A DNA stretch of 32,000 bases, taken from the NCBI RefSeq assembly GCF_036323395.1, contig NZ_AP028907.1, forward strand, positions 990,001-1,022,000, read 5' to 3'. A model generated the notes under the pieces. The model saw only the letters and a program-made list of their open reading frames with translations, had not been told where the DNA came from and did not search any database. A program made the translations under genes and the position numbers. This DNA comes from Pyrodictium abyssi. Lineage in GTDB: Archaea; Thermoproteota; Thermoprotei_A; Sulfolobales; Pyrodictiaceae. Below, one piece after another: positions 6,802-31,279 of this stretch (position 1 is its first letter; each line of letters opens with the position of its first letter).

Positions 6802-7209
6802 CTAGTCTCCTATGTAGATCACGTTGTCCAGGCCTTTGAACAGCTTATCCCCGGTCACCAGGTCCGTGTAGTTGAGTATGGCGGTCGTGTAGACTATTGC
6901 GTCCGCGAGGCTTGGGGCCCTGAGCCCCAGGCTTCTGGCCCGCTGTAGTAGCCGCATGTACTGTTTTGCCGCCTCCAGCGCTATGCCCACGTCTATGTCT
7001 ACTATCCATGTCCTAGGCCTCTATGAAGAGTAGGCGCTTTATCGTCTCGTTGGCGTCAAAGCCCTCCCGGATCTGCTTTCTAGCCGGCTCGGCGAGTACT
7101 ATCGATGGAGTGTAGCCTCTCCTCTCTAGGAGGGGCTGCCCCGCTATCCCCCTTGGCTGTGCCGCGGAAGTACCCTGGCCCATGCATATGTGTCGTAGAC
7201 TATCCATTT
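6802..7209 (-). pseudogene. PIN-domain (VapC-like) toxin gene broken across several frames
   Basis: PIN-like pieces occur in consecutive minus-strand frames. They read (M)IVYDTYAWA, then YFRGTAKGD, then LLERRGYTPSIVLAEPARKQIREGFDANETIKRLLFIEA (ORF 7013..7207), then IVDIDVGIALEAAKQYMRLLQRARSLGLRAPSLADAIVYTTAILNYTDLVTGDKLFKGLDNVIYI (ORF 6802..6990). Directly upstream (about 7210..7290) lies MFGVDRGKLCGLAGEYRLEDRKW, which could be an antitoxin C-terminal tail. Confidence 0.55.
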
Positions 7210-7577
7210 CCGGTCCTCTAGGCGATACTCCCCGGCGAGCCCGCAGAGCTTGCCTCTGTCCACGCCGAACATGTCGTCAGATATCCCGGCTTTCTCTAGA
7301 ACAGGGGCCTCTATCACATCCTCTATGAGGAGAAGCCCTGCTGCTCCTGCAGCCTCCTCGGCAGGTCATACACCCCCTTACGGATACAGACGACTCTGCC
7401 CGACGCTCCGCTTACCCCTGGCCCTCCCTAGAGCTAAGTGCTATACACCAGAGAGCCCCTAGTACCCTACACCCTTCACCGTCGCGATGAGCCGGGGAGA
7501 TGCACTCGACACAGCCCTGGGGCCGCCCCCGGGGGCCAGCGCGAACCGGCATAGCCTCCCCGTGCACAGGGTATAGC

Positions 7578-7847
7578 CTAGCAGGCACGCTCGTGGCTAC
7601 TAGGAGCCTCCCCGGGATAGAGATCCTCCACTACCTCCAGATACCCCGCCTTCCCCTTGGGGAGCCCTTCAGCATGGAAGCGATCTCTTCGAGACCCTCC
7701 TTCATCGAACAATTGCCCTAGCCCCTCCAGAACCCTTACCCGTCTGCAAGCGGGGCCTGCTAGGGCTGCTGCTACAGCCCTCTTAGAGGCCACATATCCG
7801 AGGACCATGTAGAGCCCTGCCATGAGTGCTAGGAGCACAGCCGCCAC
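7578..7847 (-). CDS. small hypothetical protein with N-terminal TM segment
   Basis: ORF only (MAAVLLALMAGLYMVLGYVAS...). No recognisable motif. Confidence 0.25.
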   Translation of the reverse strand: MAAVLLALMAGLYMVLGYVASKRAVAAALAGPACRRVRVLEGLGQLFDEGGSRRDRFHAEGLPKGKAGYLEVVEDLYPGEAPSSHERAC

Positions 7848-7939
7848 CAGTAACCCCTGGCCGGAGTCATTGGCAGAATTGGCAGAAGAAGTGTAGGCTG
7901 CCGGGGAGGCTCCGAAGGACAGGGCAAGGGGGGCATGGT

Positions 7940-8897: not shown

Positions 8898-10436
8898 CTA
8901 GCCCCCGGCCGAGAGCCTCTCCATAAGCTTCTCGAGTAGAACAGCTGCCAAGCTGCCGAAGACGCTAGCAGCAGCGGCGACACGTGGGAGGAGAAGCTGG
9001 GGCGCAAGATGCAGGGCAGGCTCTAGAGCCCTACGAGCTTCCAGGCTGGTCCATGCAATGCCTGTCCCCTGTACCTGGCTTAACGCCCCTGTAAGAGCTA
9101 GAGCAGCAGAGAACACTATTAGTACTACCATAGGCTTCAGCATGCTATCCTCGTAGTGTATCGAGCTTTTTGATATTTTAGAAACAAAGGCAGCTACTAT
9201 GGCTGCAAATGCTGCTACTATGCCGAGAAGTCTATAGTAGTAGAGGTGCTCGAGAGGTAACATCGCCAGAAAGAAGGCTACTAGAGCATTCACTAGAGCT
9301 GATGCAGCGAGAGGGGCAGCAAACTCTTCAAGCTCTATCCTCCTATAGTAGTGGTATCGACGGCTGGCTCGGAGTATGGAGAACAGTGCGTAGGAAGGGG
9401 CTACGAACACTGCGATGGCAGAGGCAAGAATGATAAAGCCGGTAATAGCCTCTACTTGTAAATACGGCAGTACGGTAGCGGCTTCTGGTAGTATCTGTGG
9501 TGAGATGAATAGCCACACGCGTATGGCTAGTATCACTGATGCTGCAACAACGGCAGATGCGGCTATATGTCGTTGCCATTGTTGCTCTCCTTCAGCCTCA
9601 TCCTCTAGGCAATCAGCGTAATACCCTTTATTGGGGAGTGCCAGTAGAGTTGCAATTCCTAGAGATAGAATGGCAAGCATAAAGTCGAGGATGAACACAG
9701 CCAAGCCCTCTCCGCCAGCGCCGCGGCCGGCAGCGGTTATTGCGATGAAGACGGCTGCAGCGGATACTGGCAGCACGATGTGCGCTATGCGGGTTCGTAT
9801 CCGTAGGAGTGGTGTATCTTTGATAGGGAGTCTCAGTGAAATGGGCTTCAGCGGCCTTGCGGCGAACAGCAGGGCCTGTGAGGTCACCAGGACATGGAAG
9901 GCTATGGTGACAAGTAGCACGGCTACCGAGAGCAGTGATGGCTCTAGCATGTCTATGGTTATGAGCCCGGTGTTGGTCTTTATGAGTATGGTGAATGTTG
10001 GGTGGAGGCTTGTCTCCAGTGGCGCTGTCACGTCTAGCAGTGTTGGGCCGGTTACGCCGTCTAGTATGTCCTCTAGCAGCCCCGTGTCGCCGCAGACCTT
10101 GCTCTCCTTGATGGTGTTTAGTATCAGCTCGGCTGCCAGCTTCTTGGAGTTGTTGTCGAGGTTGCCGTCCTTGAGGGCGTCTAGTAGGGGTAGTAGCACC
10201 CCTAGCATGCTCCTGCCGGTTATGACCGTGGCGGAGCGGGGCTCGCCCCCGTTGGCGCACGCGTAGTGTATGGTTACCTTCGACATGTTGTAGATGTAGA
10301 GTGTGTGGCCGCCGCAGGACGTGTGGACGCTGGTGAGGAGCGTCAGCGATGCCGTGAAGGCTAGTATCGTTGAGGATGCCGACGCCAGGACTAGTGCCAG
10401 CAGCGCCGCCAGCGGCACGCCTCCCGGCCGCACCAC
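8898..10436 (-). CDS. polytopic membrane protein (512 aa) with an N-terminal signal-like segment and ~150-aa extracytoplasmic domain
   Basis: Long intact ORF with repeated hydrophobic stretches (more than 8 predicted by eye). All overlapping ORFs on either strand (9209..9433, 9628..10260, 9631..10266 and others) have low-complexity R/S/P-rich translations. A T5 run follows on the coding strand (A-run 8866..8870), a possible terminator. Confidence 0.75.
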   Translation of the reverse strand: MVRPGGVPLAALLALVLASASSTILAFTASLTLLTSVHTSCGGHTLYIYNMSKVTIHYACANGGEPRSATVITGRSMLGVLLPLLDALKDGNLDNNSKKLAAELILNTIKESKVCGDTGLLEDILDGVTGPTLLDVTAPLETSLHPTFTILIKTNTGLITIDMLEPSLLSVAVLLVTIAFHVLVTSQALLFAARPLKPISLRLPIKDTPLLRIRTRIAHIVLPVSAAAVFIAITAAGRGAGGEGLAVFILDFMLAILSLGIATLLALPNKGYYADCLEDEAEGEQQWQRHIAASAVVAASVILAIRVWLFISPQILPEAATVLPYLQVEAITGFIILASAIAVFVAPSYALFSILRASRRYHYYRRIELEEFAAPLAASALVNALVAFFLAMLPLEHLYYYRLLGIVAAFAAIVAAFVSKISKSSIHYEDSMLKPMVVLIVFSAALALTGALSQVQGTGIAWTSLEARRALEPALHLAPQLLLPRVAAAASVFGSLAAVLLEKLMERLSAGG

Positions 10437-10643
10437 CCCCGGCCCTCTACAAGGAGCCTGGGGCCTTCTAGAGCGGAGAGGGTGCAGATATAACGCTTGC
10501 CGTGGGCTATAGCGGGTGTAGCCGTGTAGGCCCGGGGGCTCTGGGTGTACAGCTGTAGAGGGCTAGCGGGAGCGGGTAGAGGGGCACGCGGCAGAGCCCG
10601 GGGGCCGTCGGCGCGGCTACGCCGGGCACCCGGGGCCACGCGC

Positions 10644-11093
10644 CTAGGCGGACCCGCCGCTCTCCCGGGGGTACTGGTCCTCCTGGGCCGGGTTCTCTGC
10701 TAGGCTGTCCAGGATACCCCGCAACAGCGTGGCGAGCTCCTCCCCGGCGCCGAGGTGCCAGAGGAGCTGCTCGGTGTCGAGGAACTCGTGGTAGAAGTTC
10801 GCGTGGAGCCTCTCAGCGGCCTCGAAGAGCGCCACAAGGCGGCCCGGGTCCCCACTGTAGAGGCTCTCGTAGAGTGCGGCCAGCTCCGTCTTCACGAACA
10901 TCTTCGCCTCTCTGTGCCGGGCGAGAGGCCCCCTGCCCAGGAGCAGGCCTATCATAGACAGCAGCACCATTATCATGGACCATAGTGTTTCTCCCGCCTT
11001 TACGAGCTCTCCCTCGGCTTTCAGCCTCGCGTACTGGCTGTAGCGCTCCCGGAGCATCTCCTCGTACTCCGCGAGCACCTCCACGAGGCTCAT
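10644..11093 (-). CDS. PaREP1-like / HEPN-clan helical protein
   Basis: GETLWSMIMVLLSMIGLLLGRGPLARHREAKMFV...AAERLHANFYHEFL shares its layout with the PaREP1 domain at 6449..6775 (GKAWGAAALAVKAYAWWRGGKRLTSHRELW...EMHTCFYEGW). Confidence 0.6.
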   Translation of the reverse strand: MSLVEVLAEYEEMLRERYSQYARLKAEGELVKAGETLWSMIMVLLSMIGLLLGRGPLARHREAKMFVKTELAALYESLYSGDPGRLVALFEAAERLHANFYHEFLDTEQLLWHLGAGEELATLLRGILDSLAENPAQEDQYPRESGGSA

Positions 11094-11341
11094 GCCGGGC
11101 TCCCTACGAGAGGCATAGACCTGCTCTTCAGCGCTAGTATACGTCCATCCTCGTCTACCTCGGCCACATACCTCCTAAACAGGTACATGAACTCTATAAC
11201 CCAGACCCCGTTCCTCCTATCAACGCTGATGATGGAGATGTACTCGGGAACCATGTTGAACTCCCTGATCTTCTCCTTTAGCCTCTTAACAGCATCAGCA
11301 GCATCCACTACCGGCACACCAGCACACCACAGAATAGCCAA
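11090..11341 (-). CDS. small (83 aa) protein translationally coupled to the PaREP1-like gene
   Basis: Its stop overlaps the downstream ATG in a 4-nt ATGA-type overlap at 11090..11093. No motif recognised. Confidence 0.5.
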   Translation of the reverse strand: MAILWCAGVPVVDAADAVKRLKEKIREFNMVPEYISIISVDRRNGVWVIEFMYLFRRYVAEVDEDGRILALKSRSMPLVGSPA

Positions 11342-13838: not shown

Positions 13839-13951
13839 GGGGCCGTCGTCTAGCTTGGTAGGATGCCAGCCTGGGGACGCACCCCGCCGCCCCCACAGGG
13901 CGGGCGCCAGAGCGCTGGTGGTCCCGGGTTCGAATCCCGGCGGCCCCACCA
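13839..13951 (+). tRNA. tRNA-Pro (anticodon GGG) with a ~36-nt intron in the anticodon loop and encoded CCA
   Basis: The acceptor stem GGGGCCG/CGGCCCC is perfect. U8, G10, A14, G18G19 and A21 are present. The anticodon stem is CCAGC/GCTGG and the loop is CT-GGG-G. The intron spans about 13877..13912 and has an internal CCCGCC/GGCGGG hairpin. The variable loop is TGGTC and the T arm is CCGGG-TTCGAAT-CCCGG. The discriminator A plus CCA end at 13951. Confidence 0.85.
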
Positions 13952-18605: not shown

Positions 18606-19715
18606 GTGTTACGCCCCAGCCGAGGGCTCTGCGGGCGCTGTCCCTGGAATCCTCCTTTAGCCGCGCTGCTGCCCCTACACCCTCCGGGTGGCGCTGGCTT
18701 GGGGCGTGCTGTGCTTACGCTACTCGTCCTGCTCGCGGCGCTGCTGGCGGCTGGAGCCCACGCGCAGAGCAGCGTATACGTCGGCGGCACCGGCAGCGTG
18801 GTGATCGACGCGGGGTTTAGCCGCCCGGTCGAGGGCGCGGTGGTCCAGCTCCAGCTGAGCGCTGCGCTGTACGTGTCGCCGGTGAGCGTGGCTAGCGTTG
18901 AGGGTGTGCGCGTCTACCTAGTGCTTGAGGGCGGCAGGCTCCTAGACGTGACGGGCAACGTGAGCGTCTCTGTGGAGCAGGTGAACTTCACCACGCAGCG
19001 CGTGGACATAGCCAGCGAGGCCGCTATAGTGATCCGCCAGGAGGCAGTCACCGGGCTCCGCGTCGAGCTGACGCTGCGCGGCGTGGGGAAGGGCCAGGCG
19101 GTAGTGGCCTACACCTACACCGTGGCGGGAGCGGTCTCGCTCATGGAGAGTATGCCGGCGATGCCGTTCCTACCCATAACGGGCAGCGGGAGGACAGTGG
19201 TAGAGGTGGCCGACACCGTCACCCTGCAGGTGCGGCTGGCTGCGGGCTGGAACCTGGTAGGGGTGAGCGTGGAGCCACTGGACCCCAGGGTGGAGGCGGT
19301 CTTCGAGGGCACCCCGGTGAGCGCCGTGTACTACTACAACGCGTCGGCGGGGAAGTGGATGTACTGGGTGCCGGGCTCCGGAGGCACGCTCCGCGAGCTC
19401 CACGCCGGCATGGGTCTGTGGGTCTACGCGGGGGAGCCCTTCACGCTGACGATAACCGGCACGCCGGCGGTGGAGCCCGGGCCGGGCCTAGCGCCCGGCT
19501 GGAACCTGGTAGCGCCCCTCCTGGGCACCGGCTCGCAGCCCTATCCCGGGGACCCCGTGTACCCGGCCGAGTACTGCGCCAAGTACGGCTGCACGGCGAT
19601 CTACTACTACGACCCGGAGGAGAACAGGTGGCTCTTCTGGGCCCCGGGCAACCCGGCGAGCACGCTGCTAGCGCTGCAGCCGGGCAAGGCGTACTACGTC
19701 TACAGGCCCTGGTAG
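18606..19715 (+). CDS. secreted protein with an internally duplicated C-terminal domain
   Basis: Signal peptide GRAVLTLLVLLAALLAAGAHA-QS. In-frame alternative starts are TTG 18699 and GTG 18711. There are two repeats of the pattern GWNLV...YYY....W.(Y/F)W.PG....L..L..G..(W/Y)VY (AGWNLVGVS...GLWVYAG and PGWNLVAPL...KAYYVYRP). Confidence 0.8.
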   Translation: MLRPSRGLCGRCPWNPPLAALLPLHPPGGAGLGRAVLTLLVLLAALLAAGAHAQSSVYVGGTGSVVIDAGFSRPVEGAVVQLQLSAALYVSPVSVASVEGVRVYLVLEGGRLLDVTGNVSVSVEQVNFTTQRVDIASEAAIVIRQEAVTGLRVELTLRGVGKGQAVVAYTYTVAGAVSLMESMPAMPFLPITGSGRTVVEVADTVTLQVRLAAGWNLVGVSVEPLDPRVEAVFEGTPVSAVYYYNASAGKWMYWVPGSGGTLRELHAGMGLWVYAGEPFTLTITGTPAVEPGPGLAPGWNLVAPLLGTGSQPYPGDPVYPAEYCAKYGCTAIYYYDPEENRWLFWAPGNPASTLLALQPGKAYYVYRPW

Positions 19716-19788: not shown

Positions 19789-20586
19789 CTATGTGGCGGC
19801 AGTGACCAGCTTACAGTGGCGTTGTAGCCTTCGATAAGCCCTCGGACAGTCTAGGCCGAGACTTGTCCTATAGTACTCGCAGTCCCTCTTACACTCTACA
19901 ACGAAGGGGAGCAACAACCTGTTATGCATAAGGATCACAATACTACACGAATCCGTGTGCACGGTCAGCGGCAGGGTCCGAGAGATGCCTCGAAGAGCCA
20001 GCCTAATCCCAGCTATAAAGAGTCTAGGAGGCACGCCGTGCCTACTAGCTGTGTCGCTTAGCGCAGATGCCATAGACACGCCATCACGTATATACGTCAT
20101 TATAGCCTCCTTGAGGAACCGGAGTACATGTATGGATGCCTCATCCACCCGGCACATAGTCATGGTCTTTAAGTTGAGCTTTCTCCTTTTTGCCTCTATA
20201 GCGAGAAGCATAAGAAACCCCAATAGTTCGTCTAGCTCAACGCGTACACCCCAGGTCTTGGCGAAACAGCCCACTAGGGCCTCCTCTCCGATAATGCTGT
20301 TTATGTAGAGGGCTAGGCAGCCTTTGTTGGATATACGAGGGCGTCCACGCGGGCCATCACTTATCAGTAGACGCTCTCTCAAGAGCCTCCTAGATTTGCG
20401 ATACACCGTGGCTGTATTCATGCCCAGCATGTTGGAGATCTTGTAAGGTGAGGCTTCTTGCACCTTAAGGTACGCGTATAGGATCCGCTTCTCAGCCTCA
20501 TCGATGACTGGTACGAGGTCTGCCCACAAGCGCCTTACAGCATTTATATACTTGCTAACCTCGCTAGCGCCAACCACGTCTGCCAC
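19789..20586 (-). CDS. winged-HTH transcription regulator with a Cys-rich C-terminal domain
   Basis: HTH-like segment ILYAYLKVQEASPYKISNMLGMNTATVYRKSRRLLRERLLI. The C-terminus has the spacing C-x17-C-x3-C-x10-C-x10-C (DSCSIV...VECKRDCEYYRTSLGLDCPRAYRRLQRHC). It is divergent to the cytochrome operon. Confidence 0.7.
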   Translation of the reverse strand: MADVVGASEVSKYINAVRRLWADLVPVIDEAEKRILYAYLKVQEASPYKISNMLGMNTATVYRKSRRLLRERLLISDGPRGRPRISNKGCLALYINSIIGEEALVGCFAKTWGVRVELDELLGFLMLLAIEAKRRKLNLKTMTMCRVDEASIHVLRFLKEAIMTYIRDGVSMASALSDTASRHGVPPRLFIAGIRLALRGISRTLPLTVHTDSCSIVILMHNRLLLPFVVECKRDCEYYRTSLGLDCPRAYRRLQRHCKLVTAAT

Positions 20587-20749
20587 CTATGTCCGCCTTT
20601 GGGAAGCGGGGCGTCCGCGCTTCCGTAGGCTATATTTATTATTCTCATCGACTTTAATAAGTGTTTATCATTATAATTTGTAGGGCTCCTCCCTACGAGC
20701 GTGGAGGATGCCCGGCATTCCGGTGCGATAACTATTGCTAATCATTGTT

Positions 20750-20759
20750 GTTAGCTAAC
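20750..20759. promoter_or_regulatory. perfect 10-nt palindrome GTTAGCTAAC about 50 nt upstream of the cytochrome gene
   Basis: Read directly from the sequence. It lies in the 223-nt AT-rich divergent spacer, which also contains the hairpin GGAAGCG-n9-CGCTTCC (20602..20624) and TATA-like runs. Confidence 0.35.
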
Positions 20760-20809
20760 GAATAATCCCGGCACCTGCCATCATGTAATCGGAAGCGTGG
20801 TGTTAAATT

Positions 20810-21874
20810 ATGCAGAGACGGGCATTCATTAAGAGGATGGCGGCTACGCTAGGAGGCTTCATCCTCCTATCAAGACTGCCCCTCTCTTCTGCAGACAATG
20901 GCCACGAGAATGCGGCGCCTCCTCACCTCCCCTGGCCGTACACTAGGCTCGACCCAGAGGAGACGAGAAAGCTTGGCCATCTTGGATACTACTTGTTCGA
21001 GTGCGCAGGCGGTGCCTTCTGGTCTATAGCTGTGCAGCTTCGAGAAAAGATAGGCTATCCCTGGACGCTCCTGCCTATACCGAGCAGAGAGGAGGCTATG
21101 GAAGCGGTTAGGGAGGGAAAGCACCTGCATAGCTTGTTCCAGTACGGGTACGGTGGTGCTGTGGGCTGGGGTACACTGTGTGGAGCGCTTAACGGCTCGC
21201 TAGCAATAATCCAGATGGTCGTCGGTGAACATAAGCACTGGGATGCACTGGGCAAGAAGCTCATGAGGTGGTACGAGTCTACGCCTCTGCCCTCAGATAA
21301 GAGCAACGAGTACGCGGTAAAGGGAATGATGTACGTACCTAAGGAGAAAATGAAGTCTACAAAATGGCTTCCCAGCAACATTAGCGGCTCAACGCTCTGC
21401 CACGTGTCTGTTGGAAAGTGGTGCGAGATATCGGGCTACGCGAGCGGCTCCAAGGAGCGTAGCGAGCGCTGCGGCAGGCTCACGGGGGACGTTGCAGCCA
21501 TGACTGTTCAGCTCTTAAACACCTACTTTGAGAAGGGTCTCTCAGCTGCTTTAGCCCTAGCTGCTGATGTGAGGCTATCGCCTACCACTGCTAGCTGCCG
21601 TGTCTGCCACTACAAGGGCAAGGACTACGAGGCTGGGCAGTTCACACGCGGGTACCTCGCGTGTGAGAGCTGCCACAGAGACATGAGGCCCCACGCCCAC
21701 ACGTTTGTCAGCCTCGGTGGAGGGCATGGCGAGGCCGGGCTCAAGGGGCCTAGCTGGGCTAGAGACCTAGCCATAGCGGGCCTCGGCGCCGCTGCAGCGG
21801 CTGGCGTGGCGGCGGGAGTGCTCGCGGGCTCCGGCTCCCGGGAGGACCGCGGAGAGGAGGAGAAGGAGGGCTGA
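20810..21874 (+). CDS. Tat-signal C_GCAxxG_C_C-family redox protein with two CXXCH haem-c motifs (split-Soret-cytochrome-like) and a C-terminal TM anchor
   Basis: Twin-arginine signal MQRRAFIKRMAATLGGFILLSRLPLSSA. Family-type cysteines are FECAGGAF, GTLCGALNGSLAI, STLCHVSVGKWCE and RCGRL. Haem motifs are CRVCH and CESCH. The C-terminal hydrophobic stretch is LAIAGLGAAAAAGVAAGVLAG. Confidence 0.75.
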   Translation: MQRRAFIKRMAATLGGFILLSRLPLSSADNGHENAAPPHLPWPYTRLDPEETRKLGHLGYYLFECAGGAFWSIAVQLREKIGYPWTLLPIPSREEAMEAVREGKHLHSLFQYGYGGAVGWGTLCGALNGSLAIIQMVVGEHKHWDALGKKLMRWYESTPLPSDKSNEYAVKGMMYVPKEKMKSTKWLPSNISGSTLCHVSVGKWCEISGYASGSKERSERCGRLTGDVAAMTVQLLNTYFEKGLSAALALAADVRLSPTTASCRVCHYKGKDYEAGQFTRGYLACESCHRDMRPHAHTFVSLGGGHGEAGLKGPSWARDLAIAGLGAAAAAGVAAGVLAGSGSREDRGEEEKEG

Positions 21875-21880
21875 GGAGGG

Positions 21881-22903
21881 GTGGCGCAGAAGCCGCGGAT
21901 CGGGAGCCTAGTAGGCAGCATACTGGGCACAGCGCTGCTCCTAGCCCTGGGCTGGAGCCTGGTATACGAGTACGCGGTCAAGGTGCTCCTAAGCGACGGG
22001 CCGCGGAGGCTCCAGGAGATAAGCAGCCTGGAGCTGGGGAGCACCCTGTGGTGGAGGAACTTCGTAGCACTAGCCTTCGACGTGCTGATAATAGTAGTCG
22101 CGGCTATAGGCACCTGGTGGGTGCTCGCCAGCCTAGTAGCCGAGGCCAGGGAGGCCGGCAAGTGGAGGAGCTACTACCGGAGTAGGGAGGCCCAGAGGGA
22201 CAGGTGGGTCGAGAGGCTCACCCCCTGGCAAAGGATACAGCACCTATGGATGATGATAACGTTCATAGTGTGTGCTGTCACCGGTATGGCGGCGCACCTG
22301 GACGTGCTGGCTAGCAGGCAGACACTGCTAACCATACACGTCTACTCCGGCCTAGCGATGGGCGTGCTCGCGGTCATACACTTCGCCCAGTACACGACGA
22401 TGGCGCTGCTGGCTAAGGCCCGGGGGGAGAGCCTACGCGAGAGGTTCCCGATGCTCGAGATATACAGTAGGAAGTTCATACGCGGTATAGTGAAGACCCT
22501 GCTGAGGCCCTTCCGGCCGGGGATAAAGCCGGAGCCCTTCGGCAAGTACGACCCAGAGCAGCTCTTCGAGTACTGGGGCATCTACTGGGGCATGGCGGTG
22601 CTCGGTGTACCGGGCGTAGCGCTACTGCTATACGGCCCTGACGTGCTCGGCGGACTATTCTGGGTCATGCACTTCAAGGAGGCGATACTAGCGATAACAT
22701 TCATACTAATGGTGCACATAGCCTACACGCACTTCAGGCCCACAGTATTCCCCATGGACCCGACGTTCATACACGGCAAGATGCCGATGAAGCGGGCTAT
22801 GGAGGAGCACCCAGAGTGGGCCCGCAAGCTAGCCCAGGCCCAGCAGGAGCAGCCAGAGGAGGCCGCTAGCCCACCCGAGCAGGCAGCAGCCCGGGCACCA
22901 TAG
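21881..22903 (+). CDS. membrane b-type cytochrome (FdnI / Ni-Fe hydrogenase cytochrome-b-like)
   Basis: It starts 7 nt after the cytochrome gene. It has multiple TM helices carrying conserved-looking His residues (RIQHLWMMITF, LTIHVYSGLAMGVLAVIHFAQY, VMHFKEAILAITFILMVHIAYTHF). Confidence 0.7.
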   Translation: MAQKPRIGSLVGSILGTALLLALGWSLVYEYAVKVLLSDGPRRLQEISSLELGSTLWWRNFVALAFDVLIIVVAAIGTWWVLASLVAEAREAGKWRSYYRSREAQRDRWVERLTPWQRIQHLWMMITFIVCAVTGMAAHLDVLASRQTLLTIHVYSGLAMGVLAVIHFAQYTTMALLAKARGESLRERFPMLEIYSRKFIRGIVKTLLRPFRPGIKPEPFGKYDPEQLFEYWGIYWGMAVLGVPGVALLLYGPDVLGGLFWVMHFKEAILAITFILMVHIAYTHFRPTVFPMDPTFIHGKMPMKRAMEEHPEWARKLAQAQQEQPEEAASPPEQAAARAP

Positions 22904-22975: not shown

Positions 22976-23767
22976 CTAGGCGGGCCTAGCGCTGTACCCC
23001 TCCTCCTCGAGGACCTCCCTAAGCTCTCCAGCATCGAGCCGGGCTAGCCTGGACCTCCGGTAGTTCCCCCTCGCCAATGCCCACGCGGCCTCCTCGCCGA
23101 GCATCCTCGCTAGGAGCCGGCTAGGCGGCTGCCTAGCTAGCCACGGCCTAGGCTCGGATAAGGGCGCCGGTGGGTACACCAGGTAGCCCCGGCCGATGAC
23201 AGCTGTAGGGTAGTCGCCGTGCCGGGCGTAGTGGGGGCTGCTCCGCAGCTGGGGGTGCCTGGCCAGGAGGCGGCCCCAGCCGGTCCTAGCCGTATCCACG
23301 ACCTCCTCCACCTCCAGGAACCCGGCCAGGTACACAGCGGCCCTCCCCTCGCCCGCCGCTAGGTGGAGTGCACGGCGTATCTCGGGGAGACTCCTCCTCC
23401 GGCTCCAGAAGCCCTCCGGGTACACGGCAAGCCCGGCCACGAAGCCGACTACGTCGCCGCTGGCTAGGCTCCGTGGGAGCCGGCCCCGTGGAGCGTAGTA
23501 GTCGGTGTAGAAGCCTAGGTCCAGCCTCGGGTCGTTATGCAGTAGCCACCAGCGGTCCACGGGGAGGAAGTCTAGGAGAGGCCGCCCAGTGCACGGGTCC
23601 ACCACGCTAGCCGGGTCCATGTGGCGGGCAGCTCTCTCGGCAAAGGCCTCGGGCACGGGGATGAGCGTGGCGCAGCCTACACCCGGCCACAGGGGCGAGT
23701 AGTAGCCCCCGCCGGGCAAGCTCCCCGTGTCGAGGTAGACCCTTAGGAGGAGCAGCCTCCCCGTCAT
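22976..23767 (-). CDS. conserved hypothetical protein, possibly of the Nmad3-type nucleotide-modification-associated family
   Basis: Intact 263-aa ORF. The N-terminus LLLLRVYLDTGSLPGGGYYSPLWPGVGCATLIPVPE resembles, by eye, the SRKGFDSxxGGxxSP....lPIP pattern. LHNDPRLD is another conserved-looking block. The family assignment is tentative. Confidence 0.6.
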   Translation of the reverse strand: MTGRLLLLRVYLDTGSLPGGGYYSPLWPGVGCATLIPVPEAFAERAARHMDPASVVDPCTGRPLLDFLPVDRWWLLHNDPRLDLGFYTDYYAPRGRLPRSLASGDVVGFVAGLAVYPEGFWSRRRSLPEIRRALHLAAGEGRAAVYLAGFLEVEEVVDTARTGWGRLLARHPQLRSSPHYARHGDYPTAVIGRGYLVYPPAPLSEPRPWLARQPPSRLLARMLGEEAAWALARGNYRRSRLARLDAGELREVLEEEGYSARPA

Positions 23768-23897: not shown

Positions 23898-24304
23898 ATG
23901 GATACGTCCGGCAGCATGCCCGGAAGCAAGGTATGCTTTGATGGTAACTTGTTCGAACTAGTAAAGCGTTTTCTGGGCGCAATACCGGGCGAAGCCCAGG
24001 TACCCGACGAACTCGTATACGCCACCCATAGCGCCCGCGTCCGGGTCGAGGGCGACTGTAGCATCCTCGACGAGATCCGCAACCGGATGAGCGAGAGAAG
24101 AACCAGAGGCGGGGACCCCGAGCAGCCGTTAAAGAAGCTCCTTGAAACGATCGCGGCGGATGCTATCAAGTGTAGAACTGGGCTAATGTGGGGCGAAATA
24201 GCTATAGAGCTGGACTATGGCGGGGGTAGGCGGCTCCGCATAGTAGCGACGGGGTGCCTATCGAGACAGTGCTCTCGGTTAAGACTGCATGTGGGCAGCG
24301 GTAG
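23898..24304 (+). pseudogene. EGDC-motif paralog, copy 3, with an apparent 1-nt frameshift near the C-terminus
   Basis: Conserved blocks are KVCFDGNLFELVKRF, ARVRVEGDCSILDEI, GDPE, LMWGEIAIE and RRLRIVATG. The listed frame then gives CLSRQCSRLRLHVGSGSFL. One extra G in the G4 run at 24251..24254 gives VPIETVLSVKTACGQR-stop (24302..24304), which matches the family C-terminus. Confidence 0.65.
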
Positions 24305-24716
24305 CTTTCTGTAACCCCCTATACATTCTCTGCGTGCCGCAGAACATCTTCAGCGCTATCAGAACCTCTAGCGGGATACCCCGCACAGTAACTTCCACCC
24401 GCCTACCATCGCCGGAGACGAGTGCCACCCTCAGCTCGCCCCAGGTCAGCCGGGTGCTACACTCATCGACTATAGAGAGGAGCATCTGTAGGAGGGTCTC
24501 GAAGCTGACCCGCTGCTGGTCGGCCTCTCTGATGGCGCCCTTAGCCCGGGCAGCTAGCTCCTCGAGGAGCCCGCAGTCGCCCTCGGCTACTACGTAGGCT
24601 GACTGCAGGGCGTACTCGAACACTGGCGGCACCTCTATGTCCTCTGGCTTCGGGATACCGAGGAGCGTAAACAGCTCTAGAAGCCTACCACTATAGCATG
24701 TACGGTTCTCGTCCAC
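24279..24716 (-). CDS. EGDC-motif paralog, copy 4 (145 aa)
   Basis: Conserved blocks are RTCYSGRLLELFTLLG, AYVVAEGDCGLLEEL, LTWGELRVAL and VTVRGIPLEVLIALKMFCG. It converges on copy 3, and the 3' ends overlap. Confidence 0.75.
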   Translation of the reverse strand: MDENRTCYSGRLLELFTLLGIPKPEDIEVPPVFEYALQSAYVVAEGDCGLLEELAARAKGAIREADQQRVSFETLLQMLLSIVDECSTRLTWGELRVALVSGDGRRVEVTVRGIPLEVLIALKMFCGTQRMYRGLQKATAAHMQS

Positions 24717-25958: not shown

Positions 25959-27890
25959 GTGGTGCTGGCAACGGCGGGCGCGGGCGGCTGGGGCTCCCGG
26001 TGGCGGAGGATACAGCTTCTACCCAGGAACGGCACCGGGCTACTATGGCCGGCCGGCCTCTCACTAGAGGGCTGGCTACTCCTAGCAGCGGTCATAGGCG
26101 CAGCTAGCGGCCTCTTCGCCAGCTTCTTCTACGTCCTGCTAGAGCTGGCTACAAGCCTCTCAGCCAGGATTGTGGGGATAGAGGCCCCGCTGCGCGGCTA
26201 CACAGACCTAGGCATAGCGGTCGTAGAGTACGGCAACGGGCTGCACACGCGCCTCGCCGTGCTACTCGTGGTCGTCGCCGCGGCAGCGGTCTCGTCGCTC
26301 ATAGTCTACAGGATTGCCCCGGAGGCGGAGGGCCACGGCACAGACGCCGCGATAAAGGCGTTCCACAGGCTAGCCGGGTACCTGAGGCCCCGCGTCCCCC
26401 TGGTCAAGGCCGTGGCCTCGGCGGTTACGATAGGCGGTGGCGGCAGCGGCGGCGTAGAGGGCCCCAGCGCCCTAATGGGCGCGGGTGTGGGGAGCGCCCT
26501 AGCCCAGTGGCTGGGCCTAGGCCTCTGGGTCCGCCGGACAGCTCTAGTAGCAGGCATGGCTGGGGCGCTCTCCTCGCTCTTCCGCGCCCCCATGGGCACA
26601 GCGCTCTTCGCGGTGGAGGTGCTCTTCCGGAGGGACATCGCGGTCGAGGCCCTCATACCCGCCATAATAGCCTCGGTGATAGCGTACGCGGTCACCCTGC
26701 CGTTCTGGGGCTACGGGGAGGTGTTCCCACGCGTATCCGTGGAGACGCGGCTCCTCTACACAGCGGACGCGCTCGTCGCCTACCTCGGGCTCGCGGTGGT
26801 GTCCGCGGGCTTCGGGCTAGCCTACGTCCGGATGTTCCACGGCGCCCGCGGGCTCTTCGAGAGGCTCATAGGTAGGAGGTGGCTGCGCCCCATAGCCGGG
26901 GCGGCGGTTACCGGCGCTATAGGCCTCGTAGCCCCCTGCGTCCTCGGCTCCGGCCGGCAGCTACTCACAAAGTTCCTCGAAGACCCCTCGATACTCCTGG
27001 GAGGCCTCCAGGACAGCAGCGGGCTAGCAGCCCTCGTACTGGTCGCGGTAGCGCTCGCGAAGATGGCGGCCACCTCGATGTCCATAGGCTCTGGGGGTAG
27101 TGGCGGCGTCTTCGCCCCCGGCGTGATGGCTGGCGCTCTCCTGGGCTACGCCTACGGCCTCGTCGTGGGCACGCCGCTCTCGGGCGTAGACCCCCTGGTG
27201 TACGCCTACCTGGGCATGTCCTCCTTCTTCGCTGCTGCCTCGAAGACCCCGCTCGCCACCTCGGTGATGGTCGCCGAGATGAGCGGCAACTACGGCCTCC
27301 TCGTGCCAGCCCTCTTCGTGAGCTACCTGGCCCGCGAGTTCAGCGGCGAGGCGAGCATATACGAGTCGCAGCTGCCACGCCGTATACGCCCAGAACTCAT
27401 CAGCATAGAAGCCGTCTCGGCGATGCTCGGCAGGCTCGGGGTGAGGGCGGCCGAGGTCTGCGACAAGGGCCTCCAGCCGCTGCCAGCCAGCGCCACGGTG
27501 GCCGAGGCCATAGAGGCTATGGCTAGGCAGAGGCAGCACGTGATACCCGTAGTGGACCACGGGGGCAGGGTGCTGGGGGTGGTGGACGCGTCTATGCTCG
27601 AGGAGCTCCTAGCAGCGCCGCCCGACGCCCCGCTCTCCTCGCTGGGCCTCCGGCGCCCAATCGTGGTCTCCGAGGACGATGACATAGCCGGGGTCATAGT
27701 GGTGCTGGAGGAGGCTAGCGGCGAGGGCCTAGACCACGTGGTGGTAGTGGATCGGGGGCTCCGCTACCGCGGCGTCATACGCTACCAGGACGTGGCCGCG
27801 GCTATACTCGAGTCCTACCTCCGCGGCGCCCAGAGGCTGGCACGGGCGGCCGGGAGCCCCCAGAGGCGTAGCGTAGAAAAGACGCTGTAG
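25959..27890 (+). CDS. ClC-family chloride channel / H+-Cl- antiporter with a C-terminal CBS pair
   Basis: ClC selectivity motifs are GGGGSGGVEGPSALMG (GxEGP type) and GSGGSGGVFAPGVMAG (GxFxP type). It has about 10 or more TM helices. Two C-terminal CBS-like modules are present (TVAEAIEAMARQRQHVIPVVDHGGRVLGVVD; DHVVVVDRGLRYRGVIRYQDV). TATA-like TTATATAA lies at 25939..25946. Confidence 0.9.
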   Translation: MVLATAGAGGWGSRWRRIQLLPRNGTGLLWPAGLSLEGWLLLAAVIGAASGLFASFFYVLLELATSLSARIVGIEAPLRGYTDLGIAVVEYGNGLHTRLAVLLVVVAAAAVSSLIVYRIAPEAEGHGTDAAIKAFHRLAGYLRPRVPLVKAVASAVTIGGGGSGGVEGPSALMGAGVGSALAQWLGLGLWVRRTALVAGMAGALSSLFRAPMGTALFAVEVLFRRDIAVEALIPAIIASVIAYAVTLPFWGYGEVFPRVSVETRLLYTADALVAYLGLAVVSAGFGLAYVRMFHGARGLFERLIGRRWLRPIAGAAVTGAIGLVAPCVLGSGRQLLTKFLEDPSILLGGLQDSSGLAALVLVAVALAKMAATSMSIGSGGSGGVFAPGVMAGALLGYAYGLVVGTPLSGVDPLVYAYLGMSSFFAAASKTPLATSVMVAEMSGNYGLLVPALFVSYLAREFSGEASIYESQLPRRIRPELISIEAVSAMLGRLGVRAAEVCDKGLQPLPASATVAEAIEAMARQRQHVIPVVDHGGRVLGVVDASMLEELLAAPPDAPLSSLGLRRPIVVSEDDDIAGVIVVLEEASGEGLDHVVVVDRGLRYRGVIRYQDVAAAILESYLRGAQRLARAAGSPQRRSVEKTL

Positions 27891-27953
27891 AGGCCACGGC
27901 GCCGCCTAAGCGGTGGCACCGGGCTGGGGAGGCGCGGCGCGCTCGCACTACTC

Positions 27954-29111
27954 GTGGCCGCTGTGTTCGCCGCTAGCGTGGCTGCCGGGCTCTCCCGGCT
28001 AGCGCTGGCCAAGTACATGCGCGACGACCTGGGGGCCTCGGCGCTCATAGTCTCGAGCCTGACCACCTGGTTCATGGCGGCGCGCGCGTTCTCCTCGGTG
28101 GCCTCCGGGCTGGTAGCCGACGCCTCGCCGGCCGCCCGGAGGCTGCTCGCCACCGCACCGCTAGCCGTGATAGCGGCGCTTGTCTACACCATCCCCTCCC
28201 TGGCCTCGCCCCTGGCTATACTCGCGCTGAACGCGGCCTGGGGCCTCCTCAGCGGCATGGTCTGGCCCGTAGCGCAGACCATGGCTGCGCTCGCCGCGGG
28301 GCGGCAGAGCGCCACGGTGATGTCCGTGTACTTCGCGGCGGGGAGCCTCGGCGTGTCCCTGGGCCAGTACCTCTACGGGCTACTCCCCCTAGGCAACCCG
28401 GACGCAGTCAGGCTATCCGCCCTCCTCTTCGCGGCCTCAGCGGCCCTGCTAATCCCTGCGGTCCGCTCTATGCCAGCGCCCCCGGCGAGGCCCCGGGCAA
28501 GGGGCTCCAGGAGCCAAGGGCTGCTCGCCTCCCTGTGCAGCGACGGGCTAGCAGCCTGGATACTGCTCTCAGCCCTCTCGGCGGGCTACCTATCCGGCCT
28601 CCTCAGGGAGTTCCTCTACATCTACCTCGGCGAGGTCTACGGGCTAGACCGCCAGTCCCTCGCCTCCTCCCTCGCGGCTGCGGGGCTAGCAGCGTTCGCA
28701 GCCGGGCTCGCCGTCGGCCCTCTCGCGGACCGGCTCGGCGTAGCCCCGGTGCTCGCAGCCGTGCTGGCCATGGGGCTCGCGGGTAGCCTAGCCCTAGGCC
28801 TCTCCCCCGTCCTCTCGGCAGCCCTCCTCGGCCTCGCCCTCGCCATGACAGCTGCCCGGAGTAGCCTCCCGCTCACCAGGAACGCGGCAGCCTTCGCCCC
28901 GGGGCTCCAGGCGACCCTCGTGGGGGCCTCCAACGCGCTCTCCAACATAGGCCAGATGGCGAGCCCAGTCATAGCCGGGAGGCTCTACGACGCCCTCCGC
29001 GGCGAGACCCTGGCCGGGCTCCGGGGCGAGGCGATACCCTTCCTCACAGCGGCTGCCCTGCTCGCAGCCACACTGACCATGAGCCCCCTAGCCCGGAGGA
29101 AAGGCCCCTAG
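27954..29111 (+). CDS. MFS-type transporter (about 12 TM)
   Basis: 385-aa hydrophobic ORF with an MFS-like 6+6 layout and a central basic loop (PAPPARPRARGSRSQG). It is in the same frame as the ClC gene and opens directly after the ClC stop. Confidence 0.8.
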   Translation: MAAVFAASVAAGLSRLALAKYMRDDLGASALIVSSLTTWFMAARAFSSVASGLVADASPAARRLLATAPLAVIAALVYTIPSLASPLAILALNAAWGLLSGMVWPVAQTMAALAAGRQSATVMSVYFAAGSLGVSLGQYLYGLLPLGNPDAVRLSALLFAASAALLIPAVRSMPAPPARPRARGSRSQGLLASLCSDGLAAWILLSALSAGYLSGLLREFLYIYLGEVYGLDRQSLASSLAAAGLAAFAAGLAVGPLADRLGVAPVLAAVLAMGLAGSLALGLSPVLSAALLGLALAMTAARSSLPLTRNAAAFAPGLQATLVGASNALSNIGQMASPVIAGRLYDALRGETLAGLRGEAIPFLTAAALLAATLTMSPLARRKGP

Positions 29112-29374
29112 CCGTGCACCTCGACTAGCCTGCCGTACCGCCTCCTAGCCTCCCTAAACTCCCCCGGGGAGTAGAGGTGGAGATCCACCGGGTAGTCCCA
29201 GGGCAGCCCATACCTCTCCGCAGCCACGTCCCTTATCTCTATCGCCAGCCTCCTCTTCCTTGGGGCCTCCTCTGGCACAGCTGGGGAGACGACGACCACG
29301 TCTATATCGCTGAGAACAGTCAGCCTTCCCTCAGCAGCCCCGCCGGCCACGTAAACCCGCACATCCCCCAGCAC
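29108..29374 (-). CDS. minimal nucleotidyltransferase (MNT, Pol-beta superfamily); the N-terminus is possibly frame-disrupted
   Basis: VYVAGGAAEGRLTVLSDIDVVVVS is the GS-x(n)-DxD NTase motif. ATG 29423 gives MDWPRYVGG, which would join AVARAARDVLGD... if the C6 run 29398..29403 were one base shorter. Confidence 0.7.
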   Translation of the reverse strand: MLGDVRVYVAGGAAEGRLTVLSDIDVVVVSPAVPEEAPRKRRLAIEIRDVAAERYGLPWDYPVDLHLYSPGEFREARRRYGRLVEVHG

Positions 29375-29539
29375 GTCGCGGGCAGCCCTAGCGACGGCCC
29401 CCCACGTAGCGCGGCCAGTCCATGAGCCTCCGCAGGGTCTCGAGGAGCAGCCTAGCGAGCCCCGGCAAGCCTCTCAACCTCCTCAACGAGGCGTATCACT
29501 TCCTCTGCTGTCTCCACGCACTCCTCAGCCTCCTCCCGG

Positions 29540-30094
29540 CTATACTTCCGTATAGCCGTACCTCCCCCTATAGTAGGCGTCCTCCAGCAGCCACAGTCTC
29601 CTCCTATTCCCCGAGGCGAATCCCGCCACAGTCTCGGCAGCCTCGCCCGCCCCGGCCTCCCGCAGGAACCGCACGAGAATACCGAGAAGCTCGCCTAAGC
29701 TATGCAGCCTAGGCATAGACCCAGTTAGCCTGTAGAGGAGCGCCTTAACAGCCAGCTGGGCAGCCTGCTCAGCCTCGAAGCAGGCCAAATCGTACTCGCT
29801 ACGGCCTAGGCGCCACCGAGCTCGCTGGCTTGCAGCCGAAAAGCCGGAGGGCACGAGAAGGCATAGTCTCCGGTCCGCTAGCCCTTGCGCCTTCTCTGCC
29901 TCTCCTTCGCACGGAACTCTGCGAGCCGCTCTAAACCCCTGTAGAACGAGGCTTGCGAGCCCCCTTACTAGATTCTTCGTGTCAAGACGCTTCGAAGCTC
30001 CTCCTTCACCCGCGCTTCTCCGGAACTCCTCGATAAGCCTCTTTAGCTCCCTGGTCGCATTCGTCATCTCTTGGCTGTTAGCGTCTAGAAGCAT
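29540..30094 (-). CDS. HEPN-domain protein (partner of the MNT); the C-terminal helix lies in another frame
   Basis: HEPN core ARWRLGRSEYDLACFEAEQAAQLAVKALLYRLTGSMPRLHSLGELL...LWLLEDAYYRGRYG. After the listed stop, the typical tail KYSREEAEECVETAEEVIRLVEEVERLAGAR is readable in a different frame and ends at TAG 29452..29454. Confidence 0.65.
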   Translation of the reverse strand: MLLDANSQEMTNATRELKRLIEEFRRSAGEGGASKRLDTKNLVRGLASLVLQGFRAARRVPCEGEAEKAQGLADRRLCLLVPSGFSAASQRARWRLGRSEYDLACFEAEQAAQLAVKALLYRLTGSMPRLHSLGELLGILVRFLREAGAGEAAETVAGFASGNRRRLWLLEDAYYRGRYGYTEV

Positions 30095-30508
30095 TATGTC
30101 GAGCGTGGCTACAGCTTCTCCTGCAAGTACGTCCTCTAGGCTGCCCGGGGCCTCCCGCTGCTCTGCTAGGCTGTGAGGGCCGCTGACCAGCGGTAGTAGG
30201 TCCTCTTCCGTCTCCCTTCATGCTCCTCTGCAGCGGTTATGTCTGGTATGAAGCGCTCTAGAATCCACTTTAGGGTCTCTTGTTGTAAGCAGGGTTCCGG
30301 CTCCGCCGAGGCCTATTAGCTGTATATGACGGAGCGGCACGGCGGAGGCCCGGATATAGGCCCGGATAGAAGCCTTGTCTCCATTGCGTAGCGTGGCCGG
30401 CGCCTTTAAGGAGGGCTAGCGTGCCTGGCACGGGGCTGGGCGTAGGGGTGTTGGCTGCTGGGCGGCCGGCGCTATAAGCGGCTGAAGGATAAGGACCTCT
30501 TCGAGACC

Positions 30509-31279
30509 GTGGAGGAGGTCTGGGACAGGCAGACGCTGCTAGCAGCATACGAGGTGATGAGGCGGCTCCGGCTGGGCAGGTTCGCGGGCGTGCTGAGCGC
30601 GGGCAAGGAGGCCCGGGTCTACCGGGCGATAGGCCGGGACGGCCGCGAGTACGCGGTCAAGATATACCTCACAGTGACAGCCGAGTTCCGGAAAAGTATA
30701 CAGAAGTACCTGCTCGGCGACCCCCGGTTCGAGAACGTCGACACGAGCAACACCAAGAAGCTATTCTTTGCCTGGGCCCGGAAAGAGTTCCGCAACCTCA
30801 AGAGGATGTACGAGGCGGGCGTCCGGGTCCCCCGGCCCATCCTTGTCCACCAGAACATAGTGGTCATGGAGTTCCTCGGCCGCGACGGGCTCCGGGCTCC
30901 GACGCTCCACGAGATAAGGCACGAGATAGACCCGGAGCTAGCCGAGCAGCTAGCCCGCGAGGCCATCGACCAGTACACCAGGATATACTGCTGCGCCCGG
31001 CTCGTCCACGCCGACTACAGCGAGTACAACCTAGTCTACCTCGACGGCCAGCTCTACGTCATAGACGTCGCGCAGGCGGTCTCGCTAGAGCACCCCAACG
31101 CCGGAGACTTCCTCCGCCACGACGTGGAGAACATATACAGGTTCTTCGCAAAGCAGCTAGGAGTGGAGCTGCCCGAGCCAGAGGAGCTGCTGGAGCGGGT
31201 GAGAGCATGCCAGACCAAGTGCCCCGAGAAGCGGAGGGAGGAGCAGGGGGGCAGAGAGCAGCAGTACCAGGCCTCCTAA
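30509..31279 (+). CDS. rio1: Rio1-type atypical serine protein kinase; the true start is probably upstream
   Basis: RIO blocks are SAGKEARVYRA, YAVKIY, EFRNLKRMYEAGVRVPRP, LVHADYSEYNLVY and VIDVAQAV. The frame is open from 30446 and encodes the conserved RRYKRLKDKDLFETVEEVWD segment without a canonical start. TTG 30451 and GTG 30448 are out of frame by one base. Confidence 0.9.
   Translation: MEEVWDRQTLLAAYEVMRRLRLGRFAGVLSAGKEARVYRAIGRDGREYAVKIYLTVTAEFRKSIQKYLLGDPRFENVDTSNTKKLFFAWARKEFRNLKRMYEAGVRVPRPILVHQNIVVMEFLGRDGLRAPTLHEIRHEIDPELAEQLAREAIDQYTRIYCCARLVHADYSEYNLVYLDGQLYVIDVAQAVSLEHPNAGDFLRHDVENIYRFFAKQLGVELPEPEELLERVRACQTKCPEKRREEQGGREQQYQAS

Follow-up and report, generated by a model that had tools for sequence, protein, structure and literature searches.

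The question raised by a 32,000-nt stretch of Pyrodictium abyssi DNA (hereafter the window) is what is made by three genes that lie together at positions 19789-22903: one for a 354-residue protein resembling split-Soret cytochrome c (Ssc), one directly behind it for a 340-residue protein resembling a membrane cytochrome b, and one, transcribed divergently, for a 265-residue putative regulator. We consider, with a probability of about 0.7, that the locus is the P. abyssi copy of a conserved three-gene unit for a two-subunit membrane redox complex and its divergent regulator. Much of this had been proposed in an earlier note on the same DNA, and the three open reading frames (ORFs) that it described are all present where it placed them (coordinates are collected in Table 1).

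The 354-residue protein matches the Pfam family PF09719 (C_GCAxxG_C_C) over residues 112-234 with 44.6 bits (E=1.8e-11), above the gathering threshold of 27, and the NCBIfam model for split-Soret cytochrome c, NF047622, over profile positions 29-271 of 275 (E=4e-42, 144.5 bits). The equivalog cut-off of the latter model, 400 bits, is not reached, and the protein is to be read as a homologue within the family and not as an equivalog. With the solved structure of Desulfovibrio desulfuricans Ssc (PDB 1H21), phmmer aligned residues 41-300 to chain residues 18-244 (E=4.4e-29), with both CXXCH haem-binding motifs in register. On these matches the protein is a dihaem cytochrome c of the split-Soret family, which bears out what the earlier note had guessed as to both Ssc and the Pfam family. 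The features listed in that note are likewise present, namely the C_GCAxxG_C_C cysteine pattern (LCGALNG around Cys124), two haem-c motifs (CRVCH at residues 263-267 and CESCH at 285-289), a twin-arginine translocation (Tat) signal (QRRAFIK) and a C-terminal transmembrane anchor at residues 320-338. Conservation of the CXXCH motifs in orthologues had been named there as a test, and two such motifs per protein occur in 118/120 homologues; by alignment, both motifs are found in 119 of 120 and are shared with 1H21. Six further residues (C65, C124, C197, H198, C205, and C221) are conserved in at least 120/121 aligned sequences and all are common to 1H21. Counts of this order indicate that the conserved motifs are not due to chance, and the cysteines of the N-terminal domain are the presumed site of a non-haem iron (Fe-S) centre. 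The type of this cluster in Ssc, and which four cysteines bind it, are reportedly given in the work of Abreu et al. of 2003 on the Ssc iron centre.

The top database match of the protein was P. abyssi PABY_11140, at 100% identity. The deposited model is 258 residues long, starts at Met97 and is without the Tat leader, His57 and Cys65 (window 20810-21100); an exact-sequence look-up of the 354-residue protein returned no match because the public model is shortened in this way. We believe the longer ORF to be the correct one because homologues align from its residue 1 (with RRxF[LIVM] near the N-terminus in 110/120 of them), because the conserved Cys65 and His57 are lost in the short model, and because a GGTG motif lies a few bases 5' of the ATG at 20810, where the surrounding stretch is partly conserved among relatives. 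These comparisons support correction of the PABY_11140 start codon to ATG 20810. The N-terminus so obtained reads MQRRAFIK, with QRRAFIK at residues 2-8, and continues with MAATLGGFILLS and then SSA. A precomputed PF10518 match is carried by some Ssc homologues (P0041, P0042, and P0085), and a Tat-type leader is also present in most of the short-form (tail-less) homologues retrieved. At the other end of the protein, the hydrophobic 19-mer at residues 320-338 has a Kyte-Doolittle mean of 2.05; known Ssc is regarded as soluble and periplasmic, and in this hydrophobic C-terminal anchor the 354-residue protein differs from it.

Searched as a single sequence, the 340-residue protein just grazed PF01292 (20.7 bits, E=3.9e-4; gathering threshold 30.1), the formate dehydrogenase gamma models and, in the PDB, FdnI of Escherichia coli formate dehydrogenase-N (E=0.007). 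A profile of 25 orthologues matched FdnI (1KQF_C) with hmmsearch at E=1.6e-6, covering the whole FdnI chain and aligning His121, His153, and His284 with FdnI His18, His57, and His169, that is, with three of the four haem ligands. The AlphaFold2 model of the protein (predicted local distance difference test, pLDDT, 88.7) had 1KQF_C as its only Foldseek match in the PDB with E<=1e-3 (E=9e-4; target-normalised TM-score 0.71; root-mean-square deviation 3.9 A over 226 columns). Seven histidines are invariant in the family (His121, 153, 167, 264, 279, 284, and 310), a precomputed PF01292 match is carried by 25/57 of the other homologues listed, and the loops at residues 87-118 and 168-231, being positively charged, would fit an FdnI-like topology. 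At the level of profile and predicted fold, the identification as a cytochrome b with an FdnI-like core holds; the cytochrome b proposed in the earlier note is thereby upheld in those two comparisons, though not by PF01292 with the single sequence. The Ssc and cytochrome b genes meet at the sequence TGA ggaggg GTG, with a spacing of 6 nt, and this Shine-Dalgarno-like junction is read as indicating an operon in which translation of the two is probably coupled.

The evidence that the two proteins belong together is comparative. Eighty loci with Ssc relatives were fetched from named genomes and scored for a C-terminal tail (45 residues or more beyond the final CXXCH) and for a cytochrome b gene following Ssc, counts being limited to loci with room downstream. 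A cytochrome b gene lies directly downstream in 42 of the 43 loci in which Ssc has a tail and in 0 of the 28 in which it is tail-less (Fisher p=6e-19, with no phylogeny correction). The extension of the lone tailed exception, locus L080, is non-hydrophobic: this Latescibacterota locus (5878-7855) has two tandem Ssc paralogues, the first with a 106-residue extension, and no cytochrome b after them. Pfam searches of eight of the downstream genes gave PF01292 at 53-72 bits, and the pairing spans Archaea and at least six bacterial phyla. It had seemed specific to Archaea when an archaeal cytochrome b hidden Markov model (HMM) missed the bacterial partners, a suggestion ruled out by Pfam and a second HMM, with which the bacterial partners were recognised as a shorter subtype of the same cytochrome b family. 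This subtype (S-type; about 230 residues, four transmembrane helices and the canonical four-His pattern) was found in Desulfuromusa, Geobacter relatives, Trichlorobacter thiogenes, Deferribacterales, Anaerolineae, Aquificota, and a few Thermoproteota, and the longer one (L-type; 320-350 residues and six transmembrane helices) in Pyrodictiaceae, Ignicoccus, Hyperthermus, and other Desulfurococcales. The Ssc tail differs with the partner, having a histidine in 33/33 S-type loci and in 0/11 L-type loci. The neighbour-joining tree places the L-type Ssc proteins in a single clade, shared with two S-type loci of Thermoproteota, and because of this the L-type looks like a derived archaeal elaboration. 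We regard the co-occurrence of tail and cytochrome b, and their co-variation, as good comparative grounds for a physical complex of the two subunits; the quinone-linked, two-subunit reading put forward earlier is strengthened by it.

When all neighbouring ORFs were clustered, no third conserved structural or redox gene was found, only regulators and antisense shadow ORFs. The recurrent neighbours are a histidine kinase and a sigma54-type response regulator (17 loci each, 13 of them S-type), together with LysR regulators and LuxR-type response regulators. Such kinase and NtrC-type neighbours would imply a dedicated inducing signal for the pair, and in Pyrodictiaceae the divergent 265-residue gene appears to take the regulator role. 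Among the S-type bacterial loci L015-L059 there are cases (e.g., L025 at 2525-4057 and L029 at 9702-11114) in which a kinase and a sigma54-dependent NtrC-type regulator follow the pair.

The gene pair, the Tat leader and the cytochrome b neighbour are already on record in Pyrodictium. A survey (Kletzin et al., 2015) listed archaeal split-Soret cytochromes with predicted Tat signals, predicted two dihaem cytochromes c for Pyrolobus fumarii and reported the cytochrome c maturation (Ccm) system I in 45 archaea with predicted cytochromes c; a cytochrome c of P. abyssi has been reported biochemically (Dirmeier, 1998, as cited by Kletzin et al., 2015). In Pyrodictium delaneyi, Pyrde_1256 ("diheme split-Soret cytochrome c") was identified in haem-stained gel bands and was present on nitrate and on ferrihydrite with no differential abundance, and the cytochrome b, Pyrde_1257, was more abundant on nitrate (Kashyap and Holden, 2021). 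That species carries ccmA, ccmB, ccmC, and ccmF as well as a CcdA-type protein; ccm genes are absent from the P. abyssi window. None of the three refuting conditions set in the earlier note was borne out, the one on haem-c maturation genes being judged from P. delaneyi. Elsewhere, the Tat substrates predicted for Shewanella oneidensis include a split-Soret dihaem cytochrome, a membrane-attached Ssc has been mentioned for Natranaerofaba, and ssc is mildly repressed by nitric oxide in D. desulfuricans 27774. A survey of Desulfuromonadia cytochromes cites Ssc without discussing it or PF09719, and literature searches under the name C_GCAxxG_C_C gave table entries only, with no functional data. The novelty implied in the earlier note was too high, as a Tat-signal archaeal Ssc and the exact Pyrodictium pair had been published. 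What the present analysis adds is modest: the rule connecting tail and cytochrome b, the S- and L-type subtypes, the small regulator family and the corrected start codon.

Homologues of the 265-residue protein are few, with only 10, all Pyrodictiaceae-type, in a word index of 5.8 billion proteins, and 38 representatives (13 of them full-length) in a profile search among 1.84 billion proteins. By these searches the divergent gene is a member of a tiny, lineage-specific archaeal family. It lies divergently upstream of an Ssc-cytochrome b pair in P. delaneyi (Pyrde_1255), Pyrolobus fumarii (Pyrfu_1203), a Pyrodictiaceae metagenome-assembled genome (MAG) and Ignicoccus pacificus, and distant relatives stand divergently beside an operon for a Fer4_11 four-cluster ferredoxin and a PF01292 cytochrome b (L085 at 684-2355 and L086 at 1470-3106). 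Because these distant members adjoin such operons, the family would seem to track cytochrome-b-anchored respiratory modules. On the regulator's side of L085 there are, in addition, genes for YeeE-type Sulf_transp and TusA, and L086 contains a partial ORF whose only family match, to a Tat signal, lies below threshold.

The AlphaFold2 model of the regulator (pLDDT 91.3; predicted TM-score, pTM, 0.88) has a winged-helix-like N-terminus at about residues 30-95. Its best Foldseek matches are almost all winged helix-turn-helix (wHTH) regulators aligned to this N-terminal part and lie below significance (E 0.0085-0.09); small wHTH targets reach TM-scores of 0.67-0.85, at E>=0.0085. The remaining 165 or so C-terminal residues found no counterpart in the PDB by Foldseek. 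From Pfam, the only match was TrmB (E=0.16); the homologue in I. pacificus weakly matches TrmB, MarR, and IclR-HTH. The terminal cysteine pattern described in the earlier note is present in P. abyssi (C214-x17-C232-x3-C236-x10-C247-x10-C258), although only C232, C236, and C247 of its five cysteines are conserved, these three being invariant. C258 is not conserved, and position 214 is Cys in P. abyssi and His in nine of ten close homologues, because of which it stays a potential metal ligand. Additional conserved cysteines are C90, C107, and C145. A C-terminal domain sensing a metal or an Fe-S centre is plausible from this pattern.

In four relatives the spacer shared by the divergent genes contains the dyad TTCTCA-N7-TGAGAA about 100 nt 5' of the Ssc start, exact in P. 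delaneyi and the Pyrodictiaceae MAG and with one mismatch in Pyrolobus and I. pacificus. Exact copies were found in 4/87 fetched loci, one of these an unrelated bacterial locus. P. abyssi has no exact copy of this dyad, and either of two candidates in its spacer could be the operator (Table 1). The one at 20642-20660 is the only match with two mismatches in the window; since 0.43 such matches are expected per window, its weight comes solely from its position in the spacer.

The units of P. delaneyi (Pyrde_1255/1256/1257) and P. fumarii (Pyrfu_1203/1204/1205) have the same three-gene order and orientation as that of P. abyssi, and their pairs are annotated as split-Soret cytochrome c precursor and cytochrome b. 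The Ssc proteins of Pyrolobus and of a Pyrodictium sp. MAG are 61-68% identical to that of P. abyssi; the corresponding figures are 70-76% for cytochrome b and 47-50% for the regulator. The P. abyssi locus differs from Pyrde and Pyrfu in its longer spacer (223 bp compared with about 186 bp), its diverged dyad, the Cys at regulator position 214, and the shortened public Ssc model, and otherwise in nothing substantial.

Table 1. Features of the three-gene locus, with positions numbered from the first letter of the window.
Feature	Position	Strand	Description and basis
Regulator gene	19789..20586	-	265 aa, divergent; from the ORF list
Shared divergent promoter spacer	20587..20809		223 bp; aligned with four relatives
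Second candidate operator, TTCTCATCGACTTTAATAA	20642..20660		Two mismatches to the dyad of the relatives; putative function
Candidate operator, TCCTCC-N10-GGAGGA	20687..20708		Aligns with the dyad of the relatives; some 100 nt away from both start codons; putative function
Ssc-like gene	20810..21874	+	354 aa; predicted membrane-anchored split-Soret-type dihaem cytochrome c
Tat signal peptide	20810..20893	+	Residues 1-28; QRRAFIK, hydrophobic core, SSA; predicted cleavage site
C_GCAxxG_C_C / Ssc N-terminal domain	20930..21529	+	About residues 41-240; PF09719 and 1H21 alignment
Haem-c motif 1, C263-R-V-C-H267	21596..21610	+	1H21 alignment and conservation
Haem-c motif 2, C285-E-S-C-H289	21662..21676	+	Followed by conserved His295; 1H21 alignment and conservation
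C-terminal transmembrane tail anchor	21767..21823	+	Residues 320-338, LAIAGLGAAAAAGVAAGVL, then acidic end
Intergenic GGAGGG	21875..21880	+	6 nt, Shine-Dalgarno-like
Cytochrome b-like gene	21881..22903	+	340 aa; predicted L-type dihaem cytochrome b with six predicted transmembrane helices
N-terminal extra helical hairpin	21899..22141	+	Residues 7-87, two transmembrane helices; absent from FdnI and the bacterial S-type
FdnI-like four-helix core	22202..22870	+	Residues about 108-330; seven invariant His

In the mechanism that we propose, Ssc and cytochrome b would be co-transcribed and form a two-subunit complex on the outer face of the membrane. A non-haem iron centre would be inserted into the C_GCAxxG_C_C domain in the cytoplasm, and the Tat leader of Ssc would be explained by this assembly before export; once outside the membrane, the two c-haems would be loaded by the Ccm system on the C-terminal CXXCH pair. 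The C-terminal helix would hold Ssc at the membrane and dock on the cytochrome b, which would provide the link through the membrane from the c-haems to the pool of (methyl)menaquinone, in the manner of FdnH/FdnI; as in FdnI, its two b haems would bridge the cofactors on the outer face and a quinone site facing the cytoplasm. The Ssc subunit would provide the reactive site of a self-contained, inducible unit, and the winged-helix regulator with its Cys/His-rich sensor domain would probably act on a dyad in the 223-bp spacer. As to direction, our slight preference is for electron flow from Ssc on the outer face into quinone, by analogy with FdnI and HyaC. The low haem potentials of Desulfovibrio Ssc favour such an input to quinone, and the precedent of the thiosulfate reductase subunit PhsC favours quinol oxidation.

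Several observations weigh against these proposals. The higher abundance of Pyrde_1257 on nitrate would fit a quinol-oxidising role, mutants of ssc in D. alaskensis have no phenotype, and the support from ccm genes comes from the congener P. delaneyi. At 144.5 bits compared with the 400 of the equivalog cut-off, the function of Desulfovibrio Ssc is not simply transferable to the 354-residue protein. Characteristic of Ssc are a split Soret band, due to stacked haems in a homodimer, and bis-His ligation. His57 and His295 of that protein are conserved in 11/11 L-type and 31/31 S-type loci, and in 25/32 and 28/32 tail-less forms, but are Tyr and Thr in 1H21, and therefore haem ligation may differ from that of the solved structure. 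Two histidines of 1H21 align with positions 45 and 145, which are non-conserved elsewhere, and the axial ligation seen in 1H21 may not be typical of the family. For the cytochrome b, the single-sequence Pfam and NCBIfam scores lie under the curated cut-offs, and the position of FdnI His155 is occupied by Leu270; the L-type has His264 in its stead, at a spacing to His279 of 15 residues compared with 14. Because the invariant His264 and His279 lie on the same helix as Leu270, the P-side haem ligand seems to be displaced in the L-type.

Two other explanations of the locus would dispense with the complex altogether. The genes might be mere neighbours, with Ssc a stand-alone tail-anchored cytochrome and the cytochrome b serving another partner or being no haem protein, and the sub-threshold scores and the displaced ligand just described would be in keeping with this. 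We nevertheless regard it as very improbable in view of the adjacency of tailed Ssc and cytochrome b in Archaea and in six or more bacterial phyla (42/43 compared with 0/28), the co-variation of the tail sequence with cytochrome b subtype, the 6-nt junction with its Shine-Dalgarno-like sequence, and the seven invariant histidines and FdnI-like fold of the second protein. It is harder still to credit that the public 258-residue model is right and that the product stays in the cytoplasm, as a C_GCAxxG_C_C protein in which the CXXCH motifs would bind Fe-S or zinc and not haem. PABY_11140 was deposited in that form, and chance CXXCH motifs are common, as evidenced by 178/206 two-motif archaeal CXXCH proteins being false positives (Kletzin et al., 2015). 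Yet the longer ORF aligns from residue 1 with RRxF-bearing homologues, the short model loses conserved Cys65 and His57, both CXXCH motifs align with the haem-binding motifs of 1H21, and the orthologue of P. delaneyi was identified in a gel band that stained for haem. The pair is, in our view, real and probably respiratory.

A further alternative accepts the complex and assigns it another role, that of a general quinol dehydrogenase or electron hub (like CymA, NapC, or NrfH) feeding reductases or multihaem cytochromes, with the Fe-S centre a mere relay. In its favour, Ssc is usually described as an electron carrier, Pyrodictiaceae possess several extracytoplasmic multihaem cytochromes and molybdoenzymes, Pyrde_1256 does not differ in abundance between nitrate and ferrihydrite, and the pair has no linked substrate-specific gene. 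The dedicated regulators that adjoin it in many phyla suggest instead induction by a specific signal, and five cysteines plus His198 conserved in at least 120/121 sequences, as well as the selenoprotein variants to which the C_GCAxxG_C_C family name refers, fit a reactive site better than a relay; we therefore think such a hub unlikely. A self-contained enzyme is favoured over it because of the dedicated regulators and the lack of a third redox gene among the neighbours clustered. Carried to its full extent, the self-contained reading would make the anchored Ssc and cytochrome b a widespread, unrecognised quinone-linked oxidoreductase (Thermoproteota, Desulfuromonadia, Deferribacterota, Chloroflexota, Aquificota, and others have the anchored pair) in which the C_GCAxxG_C_C iron centre is catalytic and acts on a specific extracytoplasmic small molecule (e.g., a nitrogen or sulfur oxyanion or oxide), controlled in Pyrodictiaceae and Ignicoccus by a new Cys/His-rich, metal- or Fe-S-sensing winged-helix family dedicated to cytochrome-b-anchored respiratory modules. 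We offer this extension tentatively, as an idea with the odds against it.

Several other features of the window may be recorded. The convergent gene just 3' of the operon (22976-23767, - strand) matches Nmad3 (nucleotide modification associated domain 3) below threshold, with E=1.1e-5 and 25.7 bits compared with a gathering threshold of 27, and is not conserved beside the module in P. delaneyi or Pyrolobus. Upstream of the regulator, a 369-residue ORF (18606-19715, + strand) matches no family and contains a hydrophobic stretch at its N-terminus; its product may be a secreted or surface protein. Two convergent, slightly overlapping ORFs (23898-24314, + strand, and 24279-24716, - strand) encode paralogous proteins of 138 and 145 residues (31% identity, E=6e-18), neither with a Pfam match. 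At 25959-31279 lie genes for a CLC channel that contains a CBS domain, for an MFS transporter, for a HEPN-domain protein and for a RIO1 kinase, and there is partial synteny with P. delaneyi because MFS and RIO1 genes are also near the module there. A 1000-residue ORF with no Pfam match (2454-5456, - strand) lies in an island of 36-42% GC between flanks of 60-68% GC and may be horizontally acquired. Lastly, an Rfam tRNA match of 46.2 bits at 13839-13948 (+ strand) extends over 110 nt for a 71-position model and was not called by ARAGORN; it is probably an intron-containing tRNA of archaeal type.

For the window itself the gain is modest, amounting to a corrected PABY_11140 start and a functional label for two "hypothetical" neighbours. 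The wider interest is that, Desulfovibrio mutants being without phenotype, the anchored form is the more tractable one in which to look for the substrate of Ssc; both in hyperthermophilic archaea and in bacteria that respire metals and sulfur, it is accompanied by a cytochrome b and a regulator of its own. The anchored pair would add a respiratory module to models of energy metabolism in Pyrodictium, Geobacter relatives, and Deferribacteres. Ssc is also a natural case of a Tat-exported protein that needs c-haems outside the membrane, and as such would be useful for studies of how Tat and Ccm cooperate.

Among the closest known systems is Ssc of D. desulfuricans ATCC 27774 (1H21, NF047622, Ddes_2150), to which the 354-residue protein is homologous over nearly the whole mature protein, the two having in common the C_GCAxxG_C_C domain, the five cysteines and His198, and the two C-terminal CXXCH motifs. 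The Pyrodictium protein differs from 1H21 by a 17-residue insertion around residues 92-108 and, unlike the short forms of Desulfovibrio type, has a C-terminal extension of roughly 55 residues with a transmembrane anchor and a cytochrome b partner. In the latter respect it is reminiscent of FdnH/FdnI of E. coli formate dehydrogenase-N (1KQF) and, by extension, of HyaA/HyaC, in which an outer-face subunit with a tail anchor is likewise combined with a PF01292 cytochrome b, and in the Pyrodictium cytochrome b the counterparts of FdnI ligands H18, H57, and H169 are conserved. FdnH, however, is a four-cluster ferredoxin, whereas the outer subunit in Pyrodictium would be a dihaem c / Fe-S Ssc, and no catalytic molybdo- or NiFe subunit is encoded. 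Compared with FdnI, the Pyrodictium cytochrome b also has two extra N-terminal helices, a seemingly displaced P-side ligand and the extra invariant residues His167, His279, and His310.

For the N-terminal region of the regulator, MarR-, TrmB-, and ArsR-type proteins are candidate relatives, by matches below significance; its other 165 or so residues, with seven conserved Cys/His, match nothing in the PDB. The bacterial S-type pairs are counterparts of the Ssc-cytochrome b pair, in that an anchored Ssc, 45-55% identical at full coverage, is followed by a PF01292 cytochrome b as in Pyrodictium. They are set apart by four transmembrane helices and a tail histidine, compared with the six helices and tail without histidine of the Pyrodictium L-type, and by two-component sigma54 or LysR regulators in place of the archaeal wHTH protein.

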